A stretch of 64,000 nucleotides of DNA from Gemmatimonadota bacterium (GTDB lineage: Bacteria > Gemmatimonadota > Gemmatimonadetes > Palauibacterales > Palauibacteraceae). The DNA lies in contig OZ241352.1 of the NCBI GenBank assembly GCA_965200165.1, positions 2,308,756 through 2,372,755 of the forward strand. The letters are read 5' to 3'. A model generated the notes under the pieces. It made no database searches. It had not been told where the DNA came from and saw only the letters and a list, made by a program, of their open reading frames with translations. The translations under genes were made by a program, and so were the position numbers. Shown piece after piece: positions 17,706 through 27,713 of the stretch (positions are counted from its first letter, which is position 1; every line of letters starts with the position of its first letter).

Positions 17706-19340
17706 ATGGCGTCAAAAGCACCTGGTAGTGCCGAAGCCGAAACGCTGCCAACCCGCTGGGCCAAGGTTATCGACCATACTCGGTGCATCGGGTGCCACGC
17801 GTGCACCACCGCGTGCAAGTCCGAGAACGATGTCCCTCTAGGAGTGACCCGCACTTACGTCAAATACGCGGATGTGGGGACGTTCCCGTCGACCCGACGT
17901 GCTTTCCAGGTCACCCGCTGCAACCAGTGCGACGATGCCCCGTGCACGACAGCGTGCCCGACCGGGGCGATGTTCCGCCGCCCTGACGGCATAGTGGATT
18001 TCGACAAGTCCATCTGCATCGGGTGCAAGGCCTGTATCGCAGCTTGTCCCTACGACGCCATCTTCATCAACCCCGAGGACCACTCCGCCGAGAAGTGCAA
18101 TTTCTGTGCCCATCGTATCGATGTGGGCCTCGAGCCGGCTTGCGTAACGGTGTGCCCGACGGAAGCCATCTTCGTGGGCGATTTGGACGATCCCGACTCC
18201 AAAGTGGCGAACGTGGTAGGCCGCGATCCTGTCACCGTCCGACGTCCGGAGAAGGAGACCCGGCCCAAGCTGTTCTACAAGGGAGCTCACCAGGCGACCT
18301 TGGATCCTCTCGCGGCCGTTCAACCCGACGGTGGGCTCTACATGTGGAGCGAGCAGGGGAGGGGGGCGCACGAAATCGGGGCGGGCCAACCCGCGGACTA
18401 CGCGGCACGCCATTTCGACGCCGCGAATTCGTCGGCTGCGGCCGTTCTTTCCTATGATGTCTCGCATAAGGCGCCTTGGGATTGGCGCGTGAGCCTCTAC
18501 ACCCTCACCAAGGGGATCTCGGCAGGCGTCTACCTGGCTGCGCTCCTGCTCTGCCTCCTTGGTGATCTCATTGGAGGCGGTTCTCTCGGCGGACCCGCCG
18601 GAAGTGGCTCCGCCGCTGGTTCGGGGTGGGAGAGTCAGGTGTGGTTGACGCTGGGGCCGCTACTTGGGCTTGGCGCCCTCGCGGTGACCGGAGCGCTTCT
18701 CATCTGGGATTTGGAACATCCAATGAGAGCTCATCTGATCTTTCTCCGGCCCAGGTTCCGCAGCTGGTTGGTGCGCGGAGCCTTTATCATCACAGGATAT
18801 GGCGTGGGGCTCGTGGCGCATCTGGGAGCCAGCGTTCTTGGGTGGGTCGACGTCGCGCGACTTCTGGCATGGTTCGTGGGCCCATTAGCTCTCGGCACTG
18901 CCGTTTACACGGCTTACCTGTTTGCGCAGGCGAAGGCTCGTGATCTGTGGCAAAACCCATTGCTGCCTCCGCACTTTGCCGTCCAAGCACTCCTGGCCGG
19001 TAGCGCAACGCTCATGTTTCTCCCGACCCTCGCCACCAACCCCATTCTCACCCTATTGGTTGTGTGCGCGGCCGTTGCCCACCTGCTGTTGGTGGTGGGC
19101 GAGGTCACACTCACCCACCCTACTGCCCACGCTGCCCTGGCCGTACACCACCTGGTCCGGGGGCGATATGCAAGGTGGTTCTGGATGGGCAATGTGCTGG
19201 TGACGGCAGCCGTCCTGCTCCTGGTCGTTCCACTGGAGGGGGCCTGGATTGCTCCGCTGGTCGCGATCGTAACCCTGGCTGGACTCCTCGCTTACGAACA
19301 CGCCTACGTGCAGGCGGGCCAGGCGGTGCCGCTGGCATGA
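17706..19340 (+). CDS. fusion of a four-cluster [4Fe-4S] electron-transfer subunit (DmsB/PsrB/TtrB-like) with an NrfD/PsrC-type 8-helix membrane quinone-interacting subunit
   Basis: Cys groups CIGCHACTTAC, CNQCDDAPCTTAC, CIGCKACIAAC and CNFCAHRIDVGLEPACVTVC in the first ~200 aa. From WDWRVSLYTLTKGISAG onward I count eight hydrophobic helices. No signal or Tat leader at the N-terminus. Confidence 0.85.
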   Translation: MASKAPGSAEAETLPTRWAKVIDHTRCIGCHACTTACKSENDVPLGVTRTYVKYADVGTFPSTRRAFQVTRCNQCDDAPCTTACPTGAMFRRPDGIVDFDKSICIGCKACIAACPYDAIFINPEDHSAEKCNFCAHRIDVGLEPACVTVCPTEAIFVGDLDDPDSKVANVVGRDPVTVRRPEKETRPKLFYKGAHQATLDPLAAVQPDGGLYMWSEQGRGAHEIGAGQPADYAARHFDAANSSAAAVLSYDVSHKAPWDWRVSLYTLTKGISAGVYLAALLLCLLGDLIGGGSLGGPAGSGSAAGSGWESQVWLTLGPLLGLGALAVTGALLIWDLEHPMRAHLIFLRPRFRSWLVRGAFIITGYGVGLVAHLGASVLGWVDVARLLAWFVGPLALGTAVYTAYLFAQAKARDLWQNPLLPPHFAVQALLAGSATLMFLPTLATNPILTLLVVCAAVAHLLLVVGEVTLTHPTAHAALAVHHLVRGRYARWFWMGNVLVTAAVLLLVVPLEGAWIAPLVAIVTLAGLLAYEHAYVQAGQAVPLA

Positions 19341-19341
19341 A

Positions 19342-22293
19342 ATGGCCGTCCGCATGAAACGGAGGACCGGCGTCAACAGGGCGCGGGTGCAGGAGCTGGA
19401 GCGGCGTGTTAGTGCGGCCCGCCGCGAAACCGAGGCACGCGGCGAGACATTCTATGAGGGCCCGAGCAGAGCGCATCTGGCCTCGTTCCCGCCCCGAGAG
19501 CGTTGGGATGATTGGATTGAGCTGGATTCGCGGGCCTGGCCGGAGCGTCGCGAACGCAGATATACCTTGGTGCCAACCACATGTTTCAACTGCGAATCCG
19601 CTTGTGGGCTCCTCGCATACGTGGACAAGGATACCTACGAGGTAGCCAAATTCGAAGGGAACCCGGAGCATCCCGGTTCCCGCGGGCGCAACTGTGCCAA
19701 GGGACCGGCCACCCTAAATCAGGTGGTGGATCCAGATCGTATCCTCTACCCGCTCAAGCGGGCCGGCAAAAGGGGAGAGGGCCGGTGGCAACGTGTGTCC
19801 TGGGGGGAAGCCCTTGAGGACATTGCGGGCCGTATTCGCAACGCGATCGACGAGAAACGTCACGACGAGATCATGTACCACGTGGGCCGCCCCGGCGAAG
19901 ACGGTTTCACCGAACGCATTCTGGCGTCCTGGGGAGTCGACGGACACAACTCGCACACCAACATCTGCTCGGCAGGGGCACGCGCCGGCTACCAATTCTG
20001 GCTCGGTATGGACCGTCCCAGCCCCGACCACGCCCGCGCGCAGGTCATCCTCCTTGTCAGTTCTCATCTGGAGGCGGGTCACTACTTCAACCCGCACGCC
20101 CAGAGGGTGATCGAGGGTGTCAAGGACGGCGCCAAGCTCATCGTCTTCGACACCCGTCTCTCCAATACTGCTACACACGCGGACTACTGGTTGCCGACAC
20201 AGCCCGGGTCCGAGGCCGCAGTTCTCCTCGCCATCGCGAACCACCTGATCGCAACGGGTGCGTGGGACCGCGACTTCGTCCGGCGGTGGTTCAACTGGGA
20301 GGAGTATCTCTCCGTCGAGAGACCAGACGAGCCGTGGACCTTCGAGTCGTTCGAGAACGCCCTCAAGGAGCTATATGCACACTGTACATGGGAGTGGGCG
20401 GCCGAAGAATCCGGTGTGGATGCCCGTACTCTCCGGGAGGTAGGCGAGGTCGTGGCCCGAGCCGGATCCCGCCTCTCTACACACAACTGGCGCAGCGCAG
20501 CCTCCGGAAATGAAGGGGGTTGGCAGGTAGCGCGAACCCTGTTTTTCCTGAATGCACTTACGGGTTCCGTAGCAACCGAAGGGGGCACGTACCCTAGCAG
20601 CTGGAACAAGTTCATCCCGAAGCCGATTCGTCTCCCCCGGCACCCGGATCAGTGGAACGAACTCACCTGGCCGGAGGAGTATCCTCTGACCATGTACGAG
20701 ACCTCCTTCCTCCTGCCGCACTTCCTGGCGGAGGGCCGGGGTCGTCTGGATGTCTACTTCACTCGGGTCTACAACCCGGTGTGGACCAATCCCGATGGTT
20801 TTACGTGGATGGAGGTGTTGAGGGACGAGGACAAGGTGGGGCTTCATGTGGCCCTTACTCCGACCTGGAACGAGACCGCCTATTTCGCGGACTACATTCT
20901 GCCGATGGGACACGGGCCTGAGCGTCACGATCTCCATTCCTACGAGACGCACGACGGCCAGTGGGTGGCTTTCAGACAGCCGGTGTTGCGTGCGGCCCGG
21001 GAGCGAGCGAGTGAGAGGGTTGCCGACACCCGCCACACGAATCCGGGAGAGGTGTGGGAGGAAAACGAGTTCTGGTTGGAACTCTCTTGGCGCATCGACC
21101 CCGATGGCTCACGCGGGATCCGCGACTTCGTGGCGTCAGAGAAGGACCCGGAGCAGCGCCTGTCGACCGACGAGTACTACAGCTGGATATTCGAGCACGC
21201 CGTGCCTGGTCTTCCCGAAAGGGCCGCAAAGGACGGCAAAAGCCCGATGGAATACATGCGGAGCGTTGGCGCTTTTGAGATCGAACGGGACATCGGTCCC
21301 CTTTACGAACAAAAGGTGTCGGCGGAAGAGCTCATCGACACAGGCGAGACCGAGCTCGGACGCGTGTACTCGAGGGCCCCGAAGCCAGCCGTCGTAAACC
21401 TTTCCCCCGTTGGGATGCCGGATGCGGACTCCGAGGGTCGGCGTCCGGTGGGAGTCCGTGTGGACGGGGAGATCTTGCGTGGATTTCCGACGCCCAGCGG
21501 CAAGCTGGAATTCTGGTCCTCCACCTTGGCCAGTTGGGGATGGCCTGAATACGCGATCCCCACCTACATCCGGAGTCACGTCCACCCCGAGGTGATGGAC
21601 TCGGATCAGATGTGCCTCATCTCCACGTTCCGATTGCCGGTGCAGATTCATACCCGCTCGGCTAACGCCAAGTGGTTGGATGAGATAGCCCATACGAACC
21701 CGTTGTGGTTGCACCCGAAGGACGCGCGCCGTCTAGACGTGGGGACGGGCGACCTCGTGCGCGTGGAGACCGAAATCGGACACTTCGTTCTGAAGGCATG
21801 GGTGACGGAGGGGATCCGGCCGGGGGTTGTCGCCTGCAGCCATCACATGGGGCGTTGGAAGCTCAGAGACGGTGGTCCTGAAGAGGGTCAGCGGCAGCTG
21901 ATGGCGACGGTGGACATATCCAAGCGCAGTGGCGCGTGGAACTTGCAGCGAGAGAGTGGTGCGAGCCCATACAAGTCCGCGGATCCCGACACCAGTAGGA
22001 TCTGGTGGCAGGATGTTGGTGTACACCAGAATCTTACCTTCCCGGTGCACCCCGACCCGATCTCAGGTATGCACTGCTGGCATCAGGCTGTGAGGGTGTT
22101 GAAGGCGAAGCCCGGCGACCGCTACGGAGATATACGTGTTGACCCCGAGGAGGCGCGACGAGTGTACCTTGAGTGGCTGGAGAAGACACGGGGGGCCAAG
22201 AGACACTCTCCCGACGGTACGCGCCGACCACATTGGTTGATCCGCCCCCTGAGACCTCAGCGATCCGCTTACGAACTCCCACAGTCAGGATAA
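19342..22293 (+). CDS. Mo/W-bis(pyranopterin guanine dinucleotide) oxidoreductase catalytic subunit (Psr/Phs/Ttr/Soe-like clade), apparently cytoplasmic
   Basis: 983 aa, ATG one nt after the upstream stop. FS0 motif CFNCESACGL..NPEHPGSRGRNCAKG. Candidate Mo-ligand region HTNICSAGARAGY. The first ~80 aa are highly charged with no hydrophobic h-region, so there is no Tat signal. Confidence 0.9.
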   Translation: MAVRMKRRTGVNRARVQELERRVSAARRETEARGETFYEGPSRAHLASFPPRERWDDWIELDSRAWPERRERRYTLVPTTCFNCESACGLLAYVDKDTYEVAKFEGNPEHPGSRGRNCAKGPATLNQVVDPDRILYPLKRAGKRGEGRWQRVSWGEALEDIAGRIRNAIDEKRHDEIMYHVGRPGEDGFTERILASWGVDGHNSHTNICSAGARAGYQFWLGMDRPSPDHARAQVILLVSSHLEAGHYFNPHAQRVIEGVKDGAKLIVFDTRLSNTATHADYWLPTQPGSEAAVLLAIANHLIATGAWDRDFVRRWFNWEEYLSVERPDEPWTFESFENALKELYAHCTWEWAAEESGVDARTLREVGEVVARAGSRLSTHNWRSAASGNEGGWQVARTLFFLNALTGSVATEGGTYPSSWNKFIPKPIRLPRHPDQWNELTWPEEYPLTMYETSFLLPHFLAEGRGRLDVYFTRVYNPVWTNPDGFTWMEVLRDEDKVGLHVALTPTWNETAYFADYILPMGHGPERHDLHSYETHDGQWVAFRQPVLRAARERASERVADTRHTNPGEVWEENEFWLELSWRIDPDGSRGIRDFVASEKDPEQRLSTDEYYSWIFEHAVPGLPERAAKDGKSPMEYMRSVGAFEIERDIGPLYEQKVSAEELIDTGETELGRVYSRAPKPAVVNLSPVGMPDADSEGRRPVGVRVDGEILRGFPTPSGKLEFWSSTLASWGWPEYAIPTYIRSHVHPEVMDSDQMCLISTFRLPVQIHTRSANAKWLDEIAHTNPLWLHPKDARRLDVGTGDLVRVETEIGHFVLKAWVTEGIRPGVVACSHHMGRWKLRDGGPEEGQRQLMATVDISKRSGAWNLQRESGASPYKSADPDTSRIWWQDVGVHQNLTFPVHPDPISGMHCWHQAVRVLKAKPGDRYGDIRVDPEEARRVYLEWLEKTRGAKRHSPDGTRRPHWLIRPLRPQRSAYELPQSG

Positions 22294-22304
22294 ATCCCAA
22301 GCCA

Positions 22305-23192
22305 GTGGAACTTTTCCGCGCTCTCGGAGTGCTACTCGAACCCCCCAACTCGACGAGTTGGCGTATAGGACAGGTGCTCCAGATGGGGACACCGCCGGCT
22401 GAGCCGGAGCACAACGAGCTCTTCCTGCTACAGCTTTATCCCTATGCATCCGTATTTCTGGGGAAAGACGGTACCCTGGGCGGGGATCCGCTCAGTCGAA
22501 TTGCCGACTGGTGGCGGGTTATGGACGTAGAGCTTCCTGGGGAACCAGACCATCTGGGCACCCTGCTTTCGGCCTACGCGGAGTTGGCGGACCGTGAAAT
22601 CGATGCCGAGACAGCGCCGTGCGAACGAAGTCCGGCTACATGGCGTGCTGTCCGCCGAGCTCTGCTGTGGGAGCACATGTTGCCGTGGATACCGGTTTTC
22701 ACGGCCAAGCTCAGGCACATCGCCCCCCCGTTCTACCAGAGTTGGGCCGACATGCTCGACGCGGCATTGGCGAGCGAGGTTGAACGCCTCGGGATGGGGC
22801 GGCAGCTGCCGCTGGCTCTGCGGGAGGCGGGGGCCGTCGCGGATCCTCGCGTTGTCGGGGGAGAAGAGTTCGTCGGTGCCCTCCTCAGTCCCGTGCGGAG
22901 CGGATTGGTCTTGACTCGGTCGGACCTCGCGTGGGCCGCTAGGGATTTGGGAATCGGACTCCGCGTCGGTGAACGCCGGTTCATCCTCCGTTCGATGCTC
23001 GCGCAGGACGCGGTGGCGACCCTTGAGTGGGTGGAGAACGAAGCGCGCGCCTGGAGAACGCTGCACCGCACGTGGATGGATATAGCCCCTCGATTGTCGC
23101 ACTTTTGGGCAGAGCGAGCCGGTGAGACGGGGCGGTTGGTGGCCGAGTTGGTGGACGATATCGAGACTGGGACGTCCGACGTTCTTGACTGA
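22305..23192 (+). CDS. TorD/DmsD-family redox enzyme maturation chaperone with ~130-aa C-terminal extension
   Basis: ORF 22173..23192 overlaps the catalytic gene. GTG 22305 (VELFRALGVLLEPP) is the first start after its stop; the alternative is ATG 22383. LYPYASVFLG, PDHLGTLLSAYAELA, LLWEHMLPWIPVF and PFYQSWADML match the TorD/DmsD pattern. Confidence 0.7.
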   Translation: MELFRALGVLLEPPNSTSWRIGQVLQMGTPPAEPEHNELFLLQLYPYASVFLGKDGTLGGDPLSRIADWWRVMDVELPGEPDHLGTLLSAYAELADREIDAETAPCERSPATWRAVRRALLWEHMLPWIPVFTAKLRHIAPPFYQSWADMLDAALASEVERLGMGRQLPLALREAGAVADPRVVGGEEFVGALLSPVRSGLVLTRSDLAWAARDLGIGLRVGERRFILRSMLAQDAVATLEWVENEARAWRTLHRTWMDIAPRLSHFWAERAGETGRLVAELVDDIETGTSDVLD

Positions 23193-23202
23193 CAAACGTG
23201 GA

Positions 23203-24411
23203 GTGACCGACAAGCGTTCGGTTCCGCTGGACGCAGCCCGTTTCCGGGTATTCTTCTTGTTGCTGCTGGTGGTTGGCGTGACTCTGCTCTTCGGGCACAT
23301 GGTTCGCCCCTTCCTCATGGCTCTCCTCTTGGCCGCGATCTTCAGCGGTGTGCTCTACCCCGTTCACGAACGGATCTCCAAGGCCTTCCGGGGACGGACT
23401 ACGGTGGCTGCGATGTGTACCTTGCTTGCCTTCGCCATCCTTCTGATCGCCCCCACCGTGGCGTTTCTGGGGGTGGTCATGGGGCAGGCCGTTCACGTCA
23501 CCCAGGCAGCCGGGCCCGCGATCTCCGCCTTCCAGGAGCAGTTGAGACAGCCGGGGGCACTAGACCGCTTGCTCGAAGGCATCCCCTTCATGGACCAGAT
23601 CCGTCCATGGGAGGGACAAATCGTGCAGAAGGCCGGTGAACTGGCGGCCGGACTCGGGGGCTTTGTGGTGCGGGGAATCGGCGACCTTTCTGCCGCGACG
23701 ATGCGTCTCGCGGTTCTCGCGTTTGTTACCCCCTACGCGATGTTCTACTTCCTCACCAAGGGGCCGAAGCTCCTGGATACGGTGCTTCACTACATACCCC
23801 TATCAGACGCCGATGAACGACGCCTCTTGACGCGATTTGTGTCGGTTACGCGCGCCATGGTAAAGGGGACATTTTTGATTGGCATCCTGCAGGGTGCACT
23901 TGCGGGCCTGGCATTCATGGCCGTCGGCATCCCGTCCGCTGCCTTTTGGGGCACGGTCATGGCTGTCCTCTGCATCGTGCCGGTGCTGGGTTCGGCATTG
24001 GTGTGGATACCCGCGTCGATCTACCTCCTTGTCACGGGTGAGACGGTGGCGGGGGTCGGGTTGATCTTGTGGTGCGGGTTGGTGGTTGGGACGATGGACA
24101 ACTTCTTGCGGCCGTTTCTGGTCGGTCGTGACACCGAAATGCCGGACCTCATGATCCTCCTCGGAACCCTCGGGGGGCTCGGTGTGTTCGGGGTTGCGGG
24201 GATCATAATCGGGCCGATCGTGGCCGCAGTCTTCATCACCGTTTGGGAACTCTACGGCGAGTCTTTCGGCGACCTCCTGCCAGCCCCTGCATCCGGACCA
24301 ACGACAGAAGTCGAGTTTAGCCCTGCCGGAGGGGCGGAATCCGGGAGTGATGGTGGCGGGCGGCCCGAACCGGACATGTCTACAGCCGAAGCCGATTCAA
24401 GGGAAGAATGA
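23203..24411 (+). CDS. AI-2E family transporter (PerM/UPF0118)
   Basis: ORF 23122..24411 with start moved to GTG 23203, after the upstream stop. Multiple TM helices. FLTKGPKLLD, VTRAMVKGTFLIGILQGALAG and NFLRPFLVGRDTEMP are typical of the family. Confidence 0.8.
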   Translation: MTDKRSVPLDAARFRVFFLLLLVVGVTLLFGHMVRPFLMALLLAAIFSGVLYPVHERISKAFRGRTTVAAMCTLLAFAILLIAPTVAFLGVVMGQAVHVTQAAGPAISAFQEQLRQPGALDRLLEGIPFMDQIRPWEGQIVQKAGELAAGLGGFVVRGIGDLSAATMRLAVLAFVTPYAMFYFLTKGPKLLDTVLHYIPLSDADERRLLTRFVSVTRAMVKGTFLIGILQGALAGLAFMAVGIPSAAFWGTVMAVLCIVPVLGSALVWIPASIYLLVTGETVAGVGLILWCGLVVGTMDNFLRPFLVGRDTEMPDLMILLGTLGGLGVFGVAGIIIGPIVAAVFITVWELYGESFGDLLPAPASGPTTEVEFSPAGGAESGSDGGGRPEPDMSTAEADSREE

Positions 24412-27400
24412 CCTCAATAGCAAAAAGTCGATACATGAACGCGATCGCCGGTTTGACACTTGCAACGTCCATCCTGGCGGGACTGGCTTGGCCGGTGGCG
24501 GCGCAAGGGACCCCGGAGCAAGAGTCCGGTGAACAGGAATACCCGGGGGAGACCCTTATCGAGGCCCTTGAGTGGCGTTCCATAGGACCCGCCAACATGT
24601 CCGGCCGCGTCACGGACGTGGAGGGCATTCCAGGAACGCCCGTCTTCTACATTGCCACGGCAACCGGGGGTATCTGGAAGACGACCAACCACGGCATCAC
24701 GTTCCGATCCCTGTTCACTGAGGAGCGGGTGGTCTCGATGGGGGACATCGCCATCTCTCCGAGCGACACCAGCATCGTTTGGGCGGGGACGGGGGAAGAG
24801 GACTCTCGGAATTCGATTTCGCCCGGGGGCGGCGTGTACAAATCCGAGGATGGCGGGATCACGTGGGAGCTAATGGGTCTCGAGGAGACGCAGGCAGTCG
24901 GCCGTATCGTGGTTCATCCGACGGATCCCGATCTCGTCTACGTCGCGGCACTCGGTCACATATGGAATGCCAACGAGGAACGCGGCCTCTATCGAACGCA
25001 AGACGGAGGCGAGACGTGGGAGAGGATTCTCCACGTATCCGACAAGGCGGGGTTCGTCGATATCGCTATGCACCCGAACGACCCCGCAGTGCTGTTCGCT
25101 TCCAGCTGGGAGAGGGTGCGAGGCCCGTGGTTTTTGCAGAGCGGGGGCCCTGGCAGCGGCATTTGGCGATCCGAGGACGGTGGTGATTCTTGGACCAGGT
25201 TGGGGGGCGGCGGCCTCCCGGAAACCGAAATGGGGCGGGTAGGGCTGGCCATCGCGCACTCCGATCCGTCGATCATGTATGCTCTGATCGAAGCGGCCGA
25301 CCCCGAGGAACCGGAGGAACCCGAGGAAGACGACCCGGAGGAGGACGACGCGGAGGAAGACGACTCGGACAACCCTGAGACCGAGGAAGACCAAAGTGGG
25401 GATGGCCAACGCGGCTCAGGGCTTTACAGGTCGGAGGATGGGGGAAGTACCTGGAGGTGGATGAACGGGAGCAACACCAGACCGTTCTACTACTCCCAGG
25501 TACGTGTGGACCCGTCCGATCCTGATTTCGTCATATGGTCATCTACTCCGGTGCGGCTCTCGAAGGACGGGGGCCAGACCATCGGTCAGACGACGCTTGG
25601 GCTACATGTCGATCATCATGCTCTCTGGTGGGATGTCACCAATCCCAACTACATGGTGGTTGGGAACGACGGTGGGATCGGCATCACATGGGACAAGGGT
25701 GGTAACTGGGATTTCCCTAACCCCATGGCACTCGGCCAGTTCTACGCCGTGTCCTACAACATGGACATCCCTTACCGAGTTTGCGGTGGTTTGCAGGACA
25801 ACGGGACCTGGTGCGGTCCTAGTCGGCGGCGCTCCGGGGGAATCACGAATGCGATGTGGGCCACCGTCAACGGAGGCGATGGGTTCTACGCCCCGCAGGA
25901 TAAAGTCGATCCCGATTTGATGTGGGCGGAATCACAGGGCGGCAATATGGTCCGCCTCAACACCAACAGCGGAAGCCGGCGTGCACTGGCGAAACCCAAT
26001 TGGTCCGAGGGGACTCGCGCACTACGTGATGAGTTGGCCCTTGTGGACCCTGCGGACTCGGCTCGGGCCAACGAACTGGCGGCCCGTATTTCGGCTGATT
26101 CGGCTGCAATGGTTCTGCGTTGGAACTGGAACACGCCTATGGTTGTGTCGAGTCACGATCGGGAAGTGTTTTACGCCGGGGCGAACCGGGTCTTGAAATC
26201 TACCGCACGCGGAGACGATCTCGTGCCCATTTCGCCCGATCTTTCCTATGCGGACAGTCAAAAGATTCGCATCAGCACCGGAACGACGGGCGGCATAACT
26301 CGCGACGTGACAGGGGCAGAGACTTACGCCACGATCACCGCTCTCGCTGAATCGCCGCGGAATGCGGGGTGGTTGTTCGCCGGGACCGACGATGGCCGAG
26401 TGTGGATGACACGCGATGACGCTGGATCGTGGACCGAGCTTACCGGAAGATTCCCAGGGGCTCCCGAGGGCACCTACGTGAGTCGCATCGAGCCTTCTCA
26501 CCACACTGACAGTCGATTCTATGTGACCTTCGACGGCCATCGGTCGGGCGACTTTGCTCCCTATCTGTATGTGACCAACGATGGCGGGGATACCTTCGTT
26601 CGGCTGAAGGAGGGCCTTCCTACAGGGGGCCCAGATTTCATACATGTGGTTCGGGAGGACCCCGTTAACGAGAACCTCTTGTTCGTGGGCACGGACGTCG
26701 GGGTTTACGTGTCACTCGATCGAGGTGCCTTCTGGCACAGGTTCATGAACGGGCTGCCCACGGTTCCGGTGCACGACCTGAAAGTTCATCCGCGAGACAG
26801 GGAGCTTATTGCGGGGACCCACGGACGCTCGGTGTGGATCGTGGACATAGCCCCGCTAGCGCACGTCGCGGGACGAGACATGGATTCGGACATTTGGTTC
26901 GCCGAGCCCCGAGTCGCGCTACAGTTCGGTGACCCCTTCGTGGGTGGGGAGTCGACAGGACACCGTTTCTACAGGGGTGTGCCAAGTCCGTACGGTGCGG
27001 AGTTCATGTTCTATGTGTCGAGGGAAACGGTGTCGACCCTGAGAGATGAGGCGCGCGCGCGGCGAGATTCAATCCAAGCGGCCGCCGAGGCAGCGGGAGA
27101 AGAGGCGCCGCCCAACCGCCCATTCCAGGCGGAGATTGCCGTGATGACGCTCGAGGGAGACACGGTTCAGCATCTCTCGAGTTCGCTCTCCGGTGGCCTC
27201 CGCCGGGTTTACTGGGACTATTCGGTGCGGGTTGAGACGCCTCCCCTGTCGCCTGCCGAACGGCGCGACAGCTTGCGCATCGTTGAAGGAATCCAAGCAG
27301 TTGCGGATTCGTTTGTGGCCGAGGGCGAGGAGCCCGATGCTGTGGAGCGGATCGCTGAGCAGCTCCGCAACACTATTGGGCGCAGGACTCCGTCGGGCCC

Positions 27401-27713
27401 CATCGGCGGTGGGTCGGGGGCGATGACCACAATGGAGTTCAGAGAGCGACCGGGGGAGTCCTACACTGAACGTTCGCGTTCACGGACTCGCCGCCGGCCT
27501 GATCGCGCGAACCGGCCACCATCCCTCAACCGCAGGTTTTCGGACGAGCTAAGGGAACGCGGGTTGATCGGAACAGCCCTTTTTACCCGCCGAAGGAGCG
27601 GTTCCGAGATCGCGGAGCCCGGTCGATACCGTGTGGTGCTACGGATTGGGGCCCTGGAGTTTGAGAGTGAGTTGGAGATTGTCCGCAAACCCGGTTACGT
27701 GCCCAACCCCTGA
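24408..27713 (+). CDS. BNR/Asp-box repeat, sortilin/VPS10-like beta-propeller protein (secreted)
   Basis: ATGA overlap with the AI-2E gene. Signal peptide (AGLTLATSILAGLAWPVAAQG). Repeated Asp-boxes SEDGGITW, TQDGGETW, SEDGGDSW, SEDGGSTW, SKDGGQT and TNDGGDTF. Confidence 0.8.
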   Translation: MTSIAKSRYMNAIAGLTLATSILAGLAWPVAAQGTPEQESGEQEYPGETLIEALEWRSIGPANMSGRVTDVEGIPGTPVFYIATATGGIWKTTNHGITFRSLFTEERVVSMGDIAISPSDTSIVWAGTGEEDSRNSISPGGGVYKSEDGGITWELMGLEETQAVGRIVVHPTDPDLVYVAALGHIWNANEERGLYRTQDGGETWERILHVSDKAGFVDIAMHPNDPAVLFASSWERVRGPWFLQSGGPGSGIWRSEDGGDSWTRLGGGGLPETEMGRVGLAIAHSDPSIMYALIEAADPEEPEEPEEDDPEEDDAEEDDSDNPETEEDQSGDGQRGSGLYRSEDGGSTWRWMNGSNTRPFYYSQVRVDPSDPDFVIWSSTPVRLSKDGGQTIGQTTLGLHVDHHALWWDVTNPNYMVVGNDGGIGITWDKGGNWDFPNPMALGQFYAVSYNMDIPYRVCGGLQDNGTWCGPSRRRSGGITNAMWATVNGGDGFYAPQDKVDPDLMWAESQGGNMVRLNTNSGSRRALAKPNWSEGTRALRDELALVDPADSARANELAARISADSAAMVLRWNWNTPMVVSSHDREVFYAGANRVLKSTARGDDLVPISPDLSYADSQKIRISTGTTGGITRDVTGAETYATITALAESPRNAGWLFAGTDDGRVWMTRDDAGSWTELTGRFPGAPEGTYVSRIEPSHHTDSRFYVTFDGHRSGDFAPYLYVTNDGGDTFVRLKEGLPTGGPDFIHVVREDPVNENLLFVGTDVGVYVSLDRGAFWHRFMNGLPTVPVHDLKVHPRDRELIAGTHGRSVWIVDIAPLAHVAGRDMDSDIWFAEPRVALQFGDPFVGGESTGHRFYRGVPSPYGAEFMFYVSRETVSTLRDEARARRDSIQAAAEAAGEEAPPNRPFQAEIAVMTLEGDTVQHLSSSLSGGLRRVYWDYSVRVETPPLSPAERRDSLRIVEGIQAVADSFVAEGEEPDAVERIAEQLRNTIGRRTPSGPIGGGSGAMTTMEFRERPGESYTERSRSRTRRRPDRANRPPSLNRRFSDELRERGLIGTALFTRRRSGSEIAEPGRYRVVLRIGALEFESELEIVRKPGYVPNP
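25299..25406 (+). repeat. acidic low-complexity insert (GAG/GAC-rich) inside the BNR protein
   Basis: Encodes DPEEPEEPEEDDPEEDDAEEDDSDNPETEEDQSGDG between two Asp-box blades. Confidence 0.8.

Follow-up and report, generated by a model that had tools for sequence, protein, structure and literature searches.

A cytoplasm-facing molybdoenzyme with a fused ferredoxin/NrfD subunit in a Gemmatimonadota genome, predicted to be a sulfite:quinone oxidoreductase

Which side of the membrane does a quinone-linked molybdoenzyme serve when it lacks an export signal and carries its electron-transfer and anchor modules in one polypeptide, and what does it oxidise? These questions are raised by three genes at positions 17706 to 23192 of a 64,000-nucleotide stretch of Gemmatimonadota bacterium contig OZ241352.1 (hereafter the window, meaning the whole stretch). 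The locus is an intact two-subunit complex iron-sulfur molybdoenzyme with its assembly chaperone. It is predicted to encode a cytoplasm-facing enzyme that oxidises sulfite to sulfate and passes the electrons to quinone, a proposal that we hold to be slightly better than evenly probable. The features on which the analysis rests are as follows.

17706..19340, + strand: fused electron-transfer and anchor subunit (B-C fusion), 544 aa, an open reading frame (ORF) with Fer4_11 and NrfD domains in one polypeptide
17754..18290, + strand: four-cluster ferredoxin domain, residues ~17-195, without signal peptide, from its PsrB match and invariant Cys groups
18465..19325, + strand: NrfD/PsrC-type eight-helix anchor, residues 254-540, predicted to interact with quinone and to have its N-terminus on the cytoplasmic side, from an AlphaFold2 (AF2) model, Foldseek and counts of Lys plus Arg (K+R)
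19342..22293, + strand: catalytic subunit with predicted molybdenum-bis(pyranopterin guanine dinucleotide) (Mo-bisPGD) cofactor, 983 aa, without twin-arginine translocation (Tat) signal, from Pfam domains and homologues
19342..19575, + strand: charged, conserved N-terminal extension of the catalytic subunit, residues 1-78, not a signal peptide, kept in 40/40 homologues
19582..19695, + strand: FS0 [4Fe-4S] motif C81-x2-C84-x3-C88 ... C118, invariant in 120/120 clusters
19966..19968, + strand: codon of Cys209, predicted Mo ligand, motif HTNICSAGAR, from alignment with Cys173 of PsrA and the ArrA Cys
22305..23192, + strand: predicted redox enzyme maturation protein (REMP) chaperone of the NarJ/TorD/DmsD family, GTG start, 295 aa, from Pfam PF02613, AF2 and Foldseek
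22800..23192, + strand: C-terminal extension of the chaperone, modelled as all-helical, residues ~166-295, with a motif conserved across phyla

All three genes are co-directional. The fusion gene ends in TGA, and the ATG of the catalytic gene follows after one base. The chaperone gene starts with GTG 22305, 11 nt past the TAA of the catalytic gene; its frame is itself open from 22173, and homologues begin MELFRAL, so the true start is taken to be GTG 22305. This layout, with the 544-aa fusion, the catalytic gene 1 nt on and the chaperone gene 11 nt on, is the one that a first-pass annotation, made from the letters and their ORFs, had described, and each element of it was recovered.

For the fusion subunit, Pfam searches placed Fer4_11 at residues 67-159 (84 bits) and NrfD at residues 254-540 (62.6 bits). 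The ferredoxin domain begins at about residue 17 with no leader ahead of it, and aligns with PsrB (2vpw_B) across residues 17-194 with 176 bits; its top NCBIfam matches, TtrB (182 bits, cut-off 416) and NrfC, both lie under cut-off. An AF2 model of the fusion had a mean predicted local distance difference test (pLDDT) score of 71.5, rising above 90 in the membrane part, and contained eight transmembrane (TM) helices. Its top match in the PDB by Foldseek was PsrC (2vpw_C), with a TM-score of 0.77 normalised to the target. All four Cys groups of the ferredoxin domain were invariant in 61 homologues, and the eight-helix anchor following four ferredoxin Cys groups, as first annotated, was thereby borne out.

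An assembly frameshift was tested as the origin of the fusion in fetched related loci; gene context was drawn from 80 loci. A single stop-free frame covers both domains in 65 loci, and no cleanly split B and C genes were found among the family loci checked for the fusion frame, so a frameshift origin was ruled out. The fusion has more than 7,900 homologous clusters, of which the best 120 all carry both domains at 61-73% identity. Searches with either structural protein filled the ceiling of 8,000 candidates. Only three fetched copies (L020, L072 and L080) have an internal stop or frameshifts, which are probably assembly errors of metagenome-assembled genomes (MAGs) or decaying copies.

The catalytic subunit contains Molybdop_Fe4S4 (residues 76-127), Molybdopterin (133-534) and Molydop_binding (761-841), all above Pfam cut-offs, and by these domains is assigned to the Mo-bisPGD (DMSO-reductase) superfamily. 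Across 120 family clusters 325 of the 983 positions are invariant, among them C81, C84, C88, C118 and Cys209. In alignments the last of these, within HTNICSAGAR, falls opposite the PsrA residue that binds Mo, Cys173, and opposite the corresponding Cys of ArrA; it is the predicted Mo ligand. In formate dehydrogenases (FDH) a His directly follows the active-site Sec or Cys; the residue after Cys209 is Ser. The N-terminal ~78 residues are charged, contain no hydrophobic stretch and were kept in all 40 homologues inspected, with the conserved sequence RVSAAR.ETEARGETFYPGPSR.HLA.FPP.ERWDDW. A segment that is both conserved and charged is therefore regarded as part of the protein and not as a leader. 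In the Tat-bearing relative P0300, too, the YPP.E.W part of this segment is present, there placed after the leader. These observations uphold the annotated FS0 motif and the ~80-aa charged N-terminus without a hydrophobic region. Taken together, the domain matches, invariant residues, conserved N-terminus and chaperone tail are far beyond chance.

In three sequences inside the family clade (P0242, P0250 and P0268) the Mo-ligand Cys is missing from the alignment; these may be non-catalytic derivatives like ActB and QrcB, or may be misaligned.

Orientation was approached through export signals and the distribution of charge about the membrane anchor. No Tat or Sec signal was found with any start, either in the window protein or in the homologues inspected. 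The frame upstream of 19342 overlaps the 3' end of the fusion gene, and homologues all start within the charged conserved segment. The anchor of the window protein has 12 K+R residues in its ferredoxin-side loops and 1 in those of the other face; over 61 homologues the means are 8.4 (minimum 6) and 0.9 (maximum 3), respectively. Anchors of Tat-exported relatives have the reverse bias (3 versus 10 in Azoarcus, 5 versus 15 in Sulfurovum), and a reference SoeC has the same direction as the window anchor (9 versus 0). This bias, inverted relative to Tat-exported relatives and shared with SoeC, argues that the enzyme faces the cytoplasm, with an anchor predicted to be inverted relative to Psr-type anchors. 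The proposed cytoplasmic orientation thus held, with controls in agreement, no export signal even from an alternative start, and an N-in bias in 61 of 61 homologues; the broader claim of a quinone-coupled cytoplasmic enzyme with a covalently fused electron-transfer and anchor module fits the architecture, the absence of a leader and the charge bias.

It is scarcely credible that the enzyme is exported by an unrecognised route or that the fusion is an assembly artefact. TorD/DmsD-type chaperones usually accompany Tat substrates, and an RR pair (MKRRTG) is present in the N-terminus, but no hydrophobic region follows that pair, which lies in the conserved charged segment. Export would also require a leaderless ferredoxin domain ahead of TM1 to cross the membrane, against a strongly N-in charge bias in every homologue counted, and NarJ provides a precedent for a same-family chaperone serving a cytoplasmic enzyme. 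An artefact is hard to reconcile with one reading frame in 65 loci.

The family to which the window belongs is very widespread and highly conserved, and the window holds an intact, ordinary member. Its catalytic subunit is 72-83% identical to its 120 top-ranking relatives, which come from Gemmatimonadota, Acidobacteriota, Dormibacterota and others. In a scan of one genome per species, relatives were present in at least 598 species genomes, at 68-80% identity in Gemmatimonadota, Acidobacteriota, Actinomycetota, Chloroflexota, Dormibacterota and Binatia. Cultured organisms also carry the enzyme, among them Thermomicrobium roseum (catalytic subunit 61% identical), Rhodococcus jostii RHA1 on plasmid pRHL3 (57%) and Natrinema species (52%), and haloarchaeal catalytic subunits in general are ~52% identical. 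The class that holds one fetched relative (L079, genome G001) had a match in 138 of 300 sampled genomes.

That relative comes from a MAG titled 'Gammaproteobacteria bacterium RHO1_bin_70'. Copies from its class-mates are ~80% identical to that of the window; the genome therefore probably falls in the same class as the window, and the title is probably a mislabel for a Gemmatimonadota genome.

To place the family among known enzymes, curated NCBIfam models were applied, and no threshold was reached by the catalytic or the ferredoxin part. The best score of the catalytic subunit was to PhsA (201 against a cut-off of 694), followed among the formate dehydrogenases by Fdh-alpha (140 against 666) and FDH-N alpha (95 against 814), with ArrA at 116 against 1600 and TtrA at 100 against 1750. 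With neither a Tat leader nor a family score, the protein falls outside the Psr, Phs, Ttr and Arr families; scores below cut-off and the Ser after Cys209 place it outside the formate dehydrogenases. Among solved structures its best matches are PsrA, ArrA and acetylene hydratase (~110-119 bits).

The sulfite:quinone oxidoreductase SoeABC is known from Allochromatium vinosum and Aquifex aeolicus. As a reference we used the SoeABC of Paraburkholderia graminis plasmid pPHS1_P (L130), in which a leaderless A subunit of 977 aa, B and C are each encoded by a gene of their own; it was accepted since homologues 82-89% identical to its A subunit carry the JGI name 'sulfite dehydrogenase (quinone) subunit SoeA'. 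SoeA candidates on Variovorax, Ralstonia, Azospirillum, Rhizobium and Phaeobacter plasmids were discarded as other molybdoenzymes, e.g. FDH-N-like ones. In pairwise comparison the window catalytic subunit scored 148 bits with PhsA and 120 bits with ArxA. A quick maximum-likelihood tree recovered the family as a clade (SH-aLRT 100), with SoeA on a long branch with PhsA and ArxA. The clade includes the Tat-bearing sequences P0246, P0300 and P0268, two of which are unresolved at its base. An approximately unbiased (AU) test did not formally reject a position as sister to SoeA (p = 0.063), and an independent origin is therefore likely, not proven. JGI names the window family only by a generic COG, 'anaerobic selenocysteine-containing dehydrogenase', which we read as placing it outside the SoeA orthologue group. 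The phylogenetic check called for at first pass thus put the catalytic subunit in a clade of its own, short of every curated family threshold, and the enzyme is likely a functional analogue of SoeABC with a separate origin.

The likeness to SoeABC lies in a Mo-bisPGD subunit without Tat signal, a four-cluster ferredoxin and an eight-helix NrfD-type anchor oriented N-in, and, for the family, in a sulfur-oxidation gene context and the proposed reaction. The two differ in that SoeB and SoeC are separate and the gene order is A-B-C, whereas in the window the fusion precedes A, and in that the SoeABC catalytic subunit has no N-terminal extension. For all three modules the best-matching relative of solved structure is PsrABC of Thermus thermophilus (PDB 2VPW-2VPZ; 119 bits for PsrA, with the scores given above for PsrB and PsrC). 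It likewise has a Cys ligand to Mo, but it is Tat-exported, faces the periplasm, consists of three separate subunits and has its anchor in the opposite orientation. Loci on an Azoarcus sp. KH32C plasmid (L089) and in Sulfurovum mangrovi (L134) share with the window the order B, C, A, chaperone (ttrBCA/srdBCA-type), with catalytic subunits 33-39% identical to its own (33.5% for Azoarcus); in both, nrfD is a separate gene and the anchor charge bias is N-out, and in Azoarcus the catalytic subunit has an RRTFLK leader, with B and C as separate genes. The MOLY cluster found in sulfur disproportionators is extracellular and was set aside as a different enzyme.

The Azoarcus locus (pAZKH, 59931-65091) adjoins genes for a PhnD-like binding protein, a histidine kinase and a sigma-54 regulator, and a similar gene set lies beside the arx operon of Cereibacter azotoformans (L093). 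The Azoarcus enzyme is a candidate periplasmic oxyanion enzyme.

For the substrate, ORFs of the 80 related loci were clustered and the recurrent neighbours annotated. Fusions of metallo-β-lactamase (MBL)-fold and rhodanese domains, the domain make-up of persulfide dioxygenase-rhodanese proteins, were found in 23 of the 80 loci, covering at least five phyla, and SulP permeases in 8. Parts of a sulfate ATP-binding cassette (ABC) transporter recur, the binding protein and permease scoring above NCBIfam cut-offs, as do genes for rhodanese, DsrE2 and ArsR regulators. The cultured carriers provide fuller examples. On R. jostii RHA1 pRHL3 the genes are trx, three MBL-fold genes, ArsR, DsrE, TusA, the fusion, the catalytic gene and Mrp, with DsrE and TusA directly upstream of the two structural genes. 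In Natrinema the fusion and catalytic genes come after those for a rhodanese-MBL protein and a TauE/SafE sulfite exporter, and the locus further includes Mrp and MobA. In T. roseum a CsoR-family regulator lies directly upstream; it has two Cys and lacks the His of copper-sensing CsoR, a pattern that we take to match the persulfide sensor CstR. Judged by their order and annotation, the three T. roseum genes probably correspond to trd_A0630 to trd_A0628, and all are expressed in both exponential and stationary phase.

The catalytic subunit reaches no curated threshold and is no closer to SoeA than to PhsA or ArxA, and its clade has Tat-bearing members. Relatives, however, lie beside sulfur genes and ArsR- or CsoR-family regulators; a sulfite:quinone oxidoreductase is therefore the best reading. 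The first description left the substrate unassigned, a gap that the gene context of the family now partly fills by pointing to sulfite. In the mechanism that we propose, the catalytic subunit would dock on the ferredoxin domain fused to the N-terminus of the eight-helix NrfD/PsrC-type anchor. A cytoplasmic substrate, most probably sulfite, would be oxidised at Mo to sulfate, and the electrons would pass to quinone. Oxidation of the substrate and protonation of quinone would both take place at one face of the membrane; there would therefore be no redox loop, and any energy conservation would need proton conduction by NrfD. The enzyme would be an analogue of SoeABC that arose separately, in a clade also holding Tat-exported members.

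Several points weigh against a sulfite oxidase. The role is a prediction for every member of the family, biochemically and genetically uncharacterised, and in the Psr/Phs/Ttr/Soe group the substrate cannot be read from sequence. By similarity the catalytic subunit does not group as a SoeA orthologue, with 27% identity to the reference over 272 residues (117 bits). The neighbours in the window (RND efflux, hydratase, AI-2E, BNR protein) are not sulfur genes, the nearest persulfide-dioxygenase-like gene of the genome lies 1.2 Mb away, and four SUOX-fold genes in the same genome could oxidise sulfite. Because of these unrelated neighbours and SUOX-fold genes, the functional argument is drawn from the family at large, not from this locus. 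An enzyme that uses thiosulfate would likewise be consistent with the sulfate/thiosulfate importers next to some loci, and the correspondence of the family to the previously described PSRLC3, taken up below, is one of description.

The SUOX-fold (Oxidored_molyb) genes of the 2.9-Mb genome lie at G000:C1:1441874-1443741 (L135, L137), 1409306 and 750763, two of them on opposite strands ~1 kb apart. Only one other large molybdopterin enzyme is encoded in the genome (G000:C1:1890533-1891801, L084); its 931-aa open frame has one in-frame TGA, and it may be a selenocysteine formate dehydrogenase.

The same architecture could serve another sulfur substrate, either by reducing thiosulfate, tetrathionate or polysulfide with quinol or by oxidising sulfane sulfur or thiosulfonate carried by TusA/DsrE, and we consider this possible but fairly unlikely. 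It would suit the top curated matches to PhsA (catalytic) and TtrB (ferredoxin) and the standing of PsrA as best solved relative, but all of these matches fall far under family cut-offs. It would also suit the DsrE and TusA genes directly upstream in RHA1, the sulfate/thiosulfate ABC importers beside several Pyrinomonadaceae loci and the recurrence of rhodanese. Most carriers, however, are aerobic heterotrophs, in which there is no evident use for a cytoplasmic sulfur reductase driven by quinol, and persulfide dioxygenase and TauE/SulP as neighbours suggest that the intermediate still to be removed is sulfite. A narrower form, in which the enzyme oxidises TusA/DsrE-delivered, carrier-bound sulfane sulfur or thiosulfonate in place of free sulfite, with electrons again passing to quinone, is distinctly improbable. 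Were it true, it would join reverse Dsr and sHdr as a third cytoplasmic pathway, this one Mo-dependent, by which persulfide is converted to sulfite or sulfate, and it would operate in aerobic heterotrophs of soil and sea. A non-sulfur substrate (arsenite, selenium or nitrogen oxyanions, or an organic S- or N-oxide) appears unlikely. The nearest unfused Tat relative, on the Azoarcus plasmid (33.5%), has a neighbour set like that of the C. azotoformans arx operon, ArsR-family regulators are frequent neighbours, and the window operon has no adjoining sulfur genes. On the other hand, the recurrent neighbours of the family include no ars, arr, aio, selenium or nitrogen genes, ArsR/SmtB regulators include persulfide sensors, and conservation as high as 70-80% identity across phyla would suit a single small substrate common to all.

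Formate is a very improbable substrate, although it has been proposed for a comparable complex. The Fdh-alpha score of 140 bits against 666 is below that of PhsA, Cys209 is followed by Ser and not by the FDH-type His, and no formate-related gene recurs in the 80 loci, where sulfur genes do. The T. roseum gene is annotated 'formate dehydrogenase', and a review of NrfD-like subunits (Calisto and Pereira 2021) gave the tentative name 'FqoABC', formate:quinone oxidoreductase, to an uncharacterised complex of Actinobacteria, Chlorobi, Chloroflexi and Crenarchaeota, a taxon list resembling that of the window family, from the similarity of its peripheral subunits to FdnGH (PMC8076601). The FqoABC template, ct0494, is likened to the window family by description only. 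When published residue numbers of FqoC (ct0494) were mapped by hand on the window anchor, the spacing did not fit.

FqoABC is one of several earlier descriptions of such an architecture. PSRLC3 of green sulfur bacteria was described as 'an alternative sulfite-oxidizing system' (PMC6338057) encoded by '2 genes' (PMC5473276) and as 'inferred to be sulfite oxidase', a role put forward without experiment (PMC9324843). Like the window, it has two structural genes, a PsrA-like subunit and inferred cytoplasmic sulfite oxidation, a likeness of description only; it differs in being a genomic prediction in Chlorobi, whereas the window is from Gemmatimonadota and has an added dedicated chaperone gene. 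The window family may plausibly be PSRLC3, judging by architecture and description. The NrfD-like subunit review mentions no fusion and gives SoeC as the sole inverted anchor (PMC8076601), and Bay et al. (2015) noted '2-3 ORF nrfD-hybA-bisC' operons with TorD/DmsD-like chaperones, which they left unexplained (PMC4464133). The first-pass annotation knew of no characterised example of the architecture. None has been characterised, but the architecture itself had already been described with a predicted role, as PSRLC3, FqoABC and nrfD-hybA-bisC. The architecture is thus not new, and the family is predicted but uncharacterised.

The third protein of the locus matches Nitrate_red_del (PF02613) with 49 bits against a cut-off of 22. 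Its AF2 model (pLDDT 89) was matched by Foldseek with probability 1.0 to DmsD (1s9u/3efp), YcdY and TtrD over ~170-200 residues, and from this domain and the modelled all-helical DmsD fold it is assigned to the REMPs of the NarJ/TorD/DmsD family. A further C-terminal domain lies outside the definition of that family. This tail of ~130 residues is helical in the model, has the motif PVRSG.ILTR.DL.RAAR.LGLGLR.GER conserved across phyla, and had no PDB match of its own by Foldseek. Of 65 assessable loci, 47 have a chaperone gene 3' of the catalytic gene, and in 40 of those 47 the chaperone has the tail, so that the TorD-like gene with an extra tail seen at first pass is a family trait as well as a feature of the window. 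At least nine loci with the catalytic N-terminal motif have no chaperone within 1.5 kb, a count obtained with a motif pattern that was too strict.

In the NarGHJI system NarJ binds the Tat-less N-terminal tail of its enzyme. As in the window, that enzyme is a cytoplasm-facing, non-exported Mo-bisPGD enzyme with a chaperone of the same family; unlike the window, it belongs to a different clade, its anchor NarI is a haem b protein and not NrfD, and the ligand in NarG is Asp. By analogy we hypothesise that the DmsD-like chaperone acts in the manner of NarJ on a Tat-less enzyme, binding the N-terminal extension and holding the apo-subunit for cofactor insertion.

The window itself adds no new kind of system, and the interest lies in the family, which is among the most conserved and widespread molybdoenzymes still without an assigned function. 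Standard sulfur-gene catalogues may miss it, and JGI has no SoeA name for it. Should it prove to be the principal sulfite oxidiser in the cytoplasm of aerobic heterotrophs, the potential for sulfite oxidation in soil, sediment and sponge-symbiont metagenomes would be underestimated. It would also be a second case of a Tat-exported NrfD-anchored enzyme turned inward, and as such useful for the study of the evolution of membrane-protein topology and chaperone use.

A study of Bohai Sea sediment did not detect SoeABC in any sample (PMC12345210). Four MAGs that carry the family (L006, L013, L050 and L052) have isolate names that begin with BHB10, M3 and M8, in agreement with the station codes of that study, and are tied to it by name only; if they are its MAGs, they would exemplify how the family escapes sulfur-gene surveys.

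Around the operon, promoter and terminator scans gave no sites above the number in shuffled sequence. Upstream lie the genes of the RND efflux system and the hydratase, and downstream those of the AI-2E transporter and the BNR protein. The AI-2E (PerM-type) transporter gene is found 3' of the chaperone gene in six Gemmatimonadota loci (the window, at 23203-27713, and L003, L004, L005, L006 and L013), and in three of them (the window, L003 and L013) the gene after it is also the same. This synteny is lineage-specific and could mark a product exporter for the enzyme, or mere packing. Between the fusion and catalytic genes, several Pyrinomonadaceae loci (L016, L018, L024, L031, L040 and others) have small ORFs, and the 1-nt coupling is therefore not universal; one recurrent ORF among these encodes a DinB-family protein.

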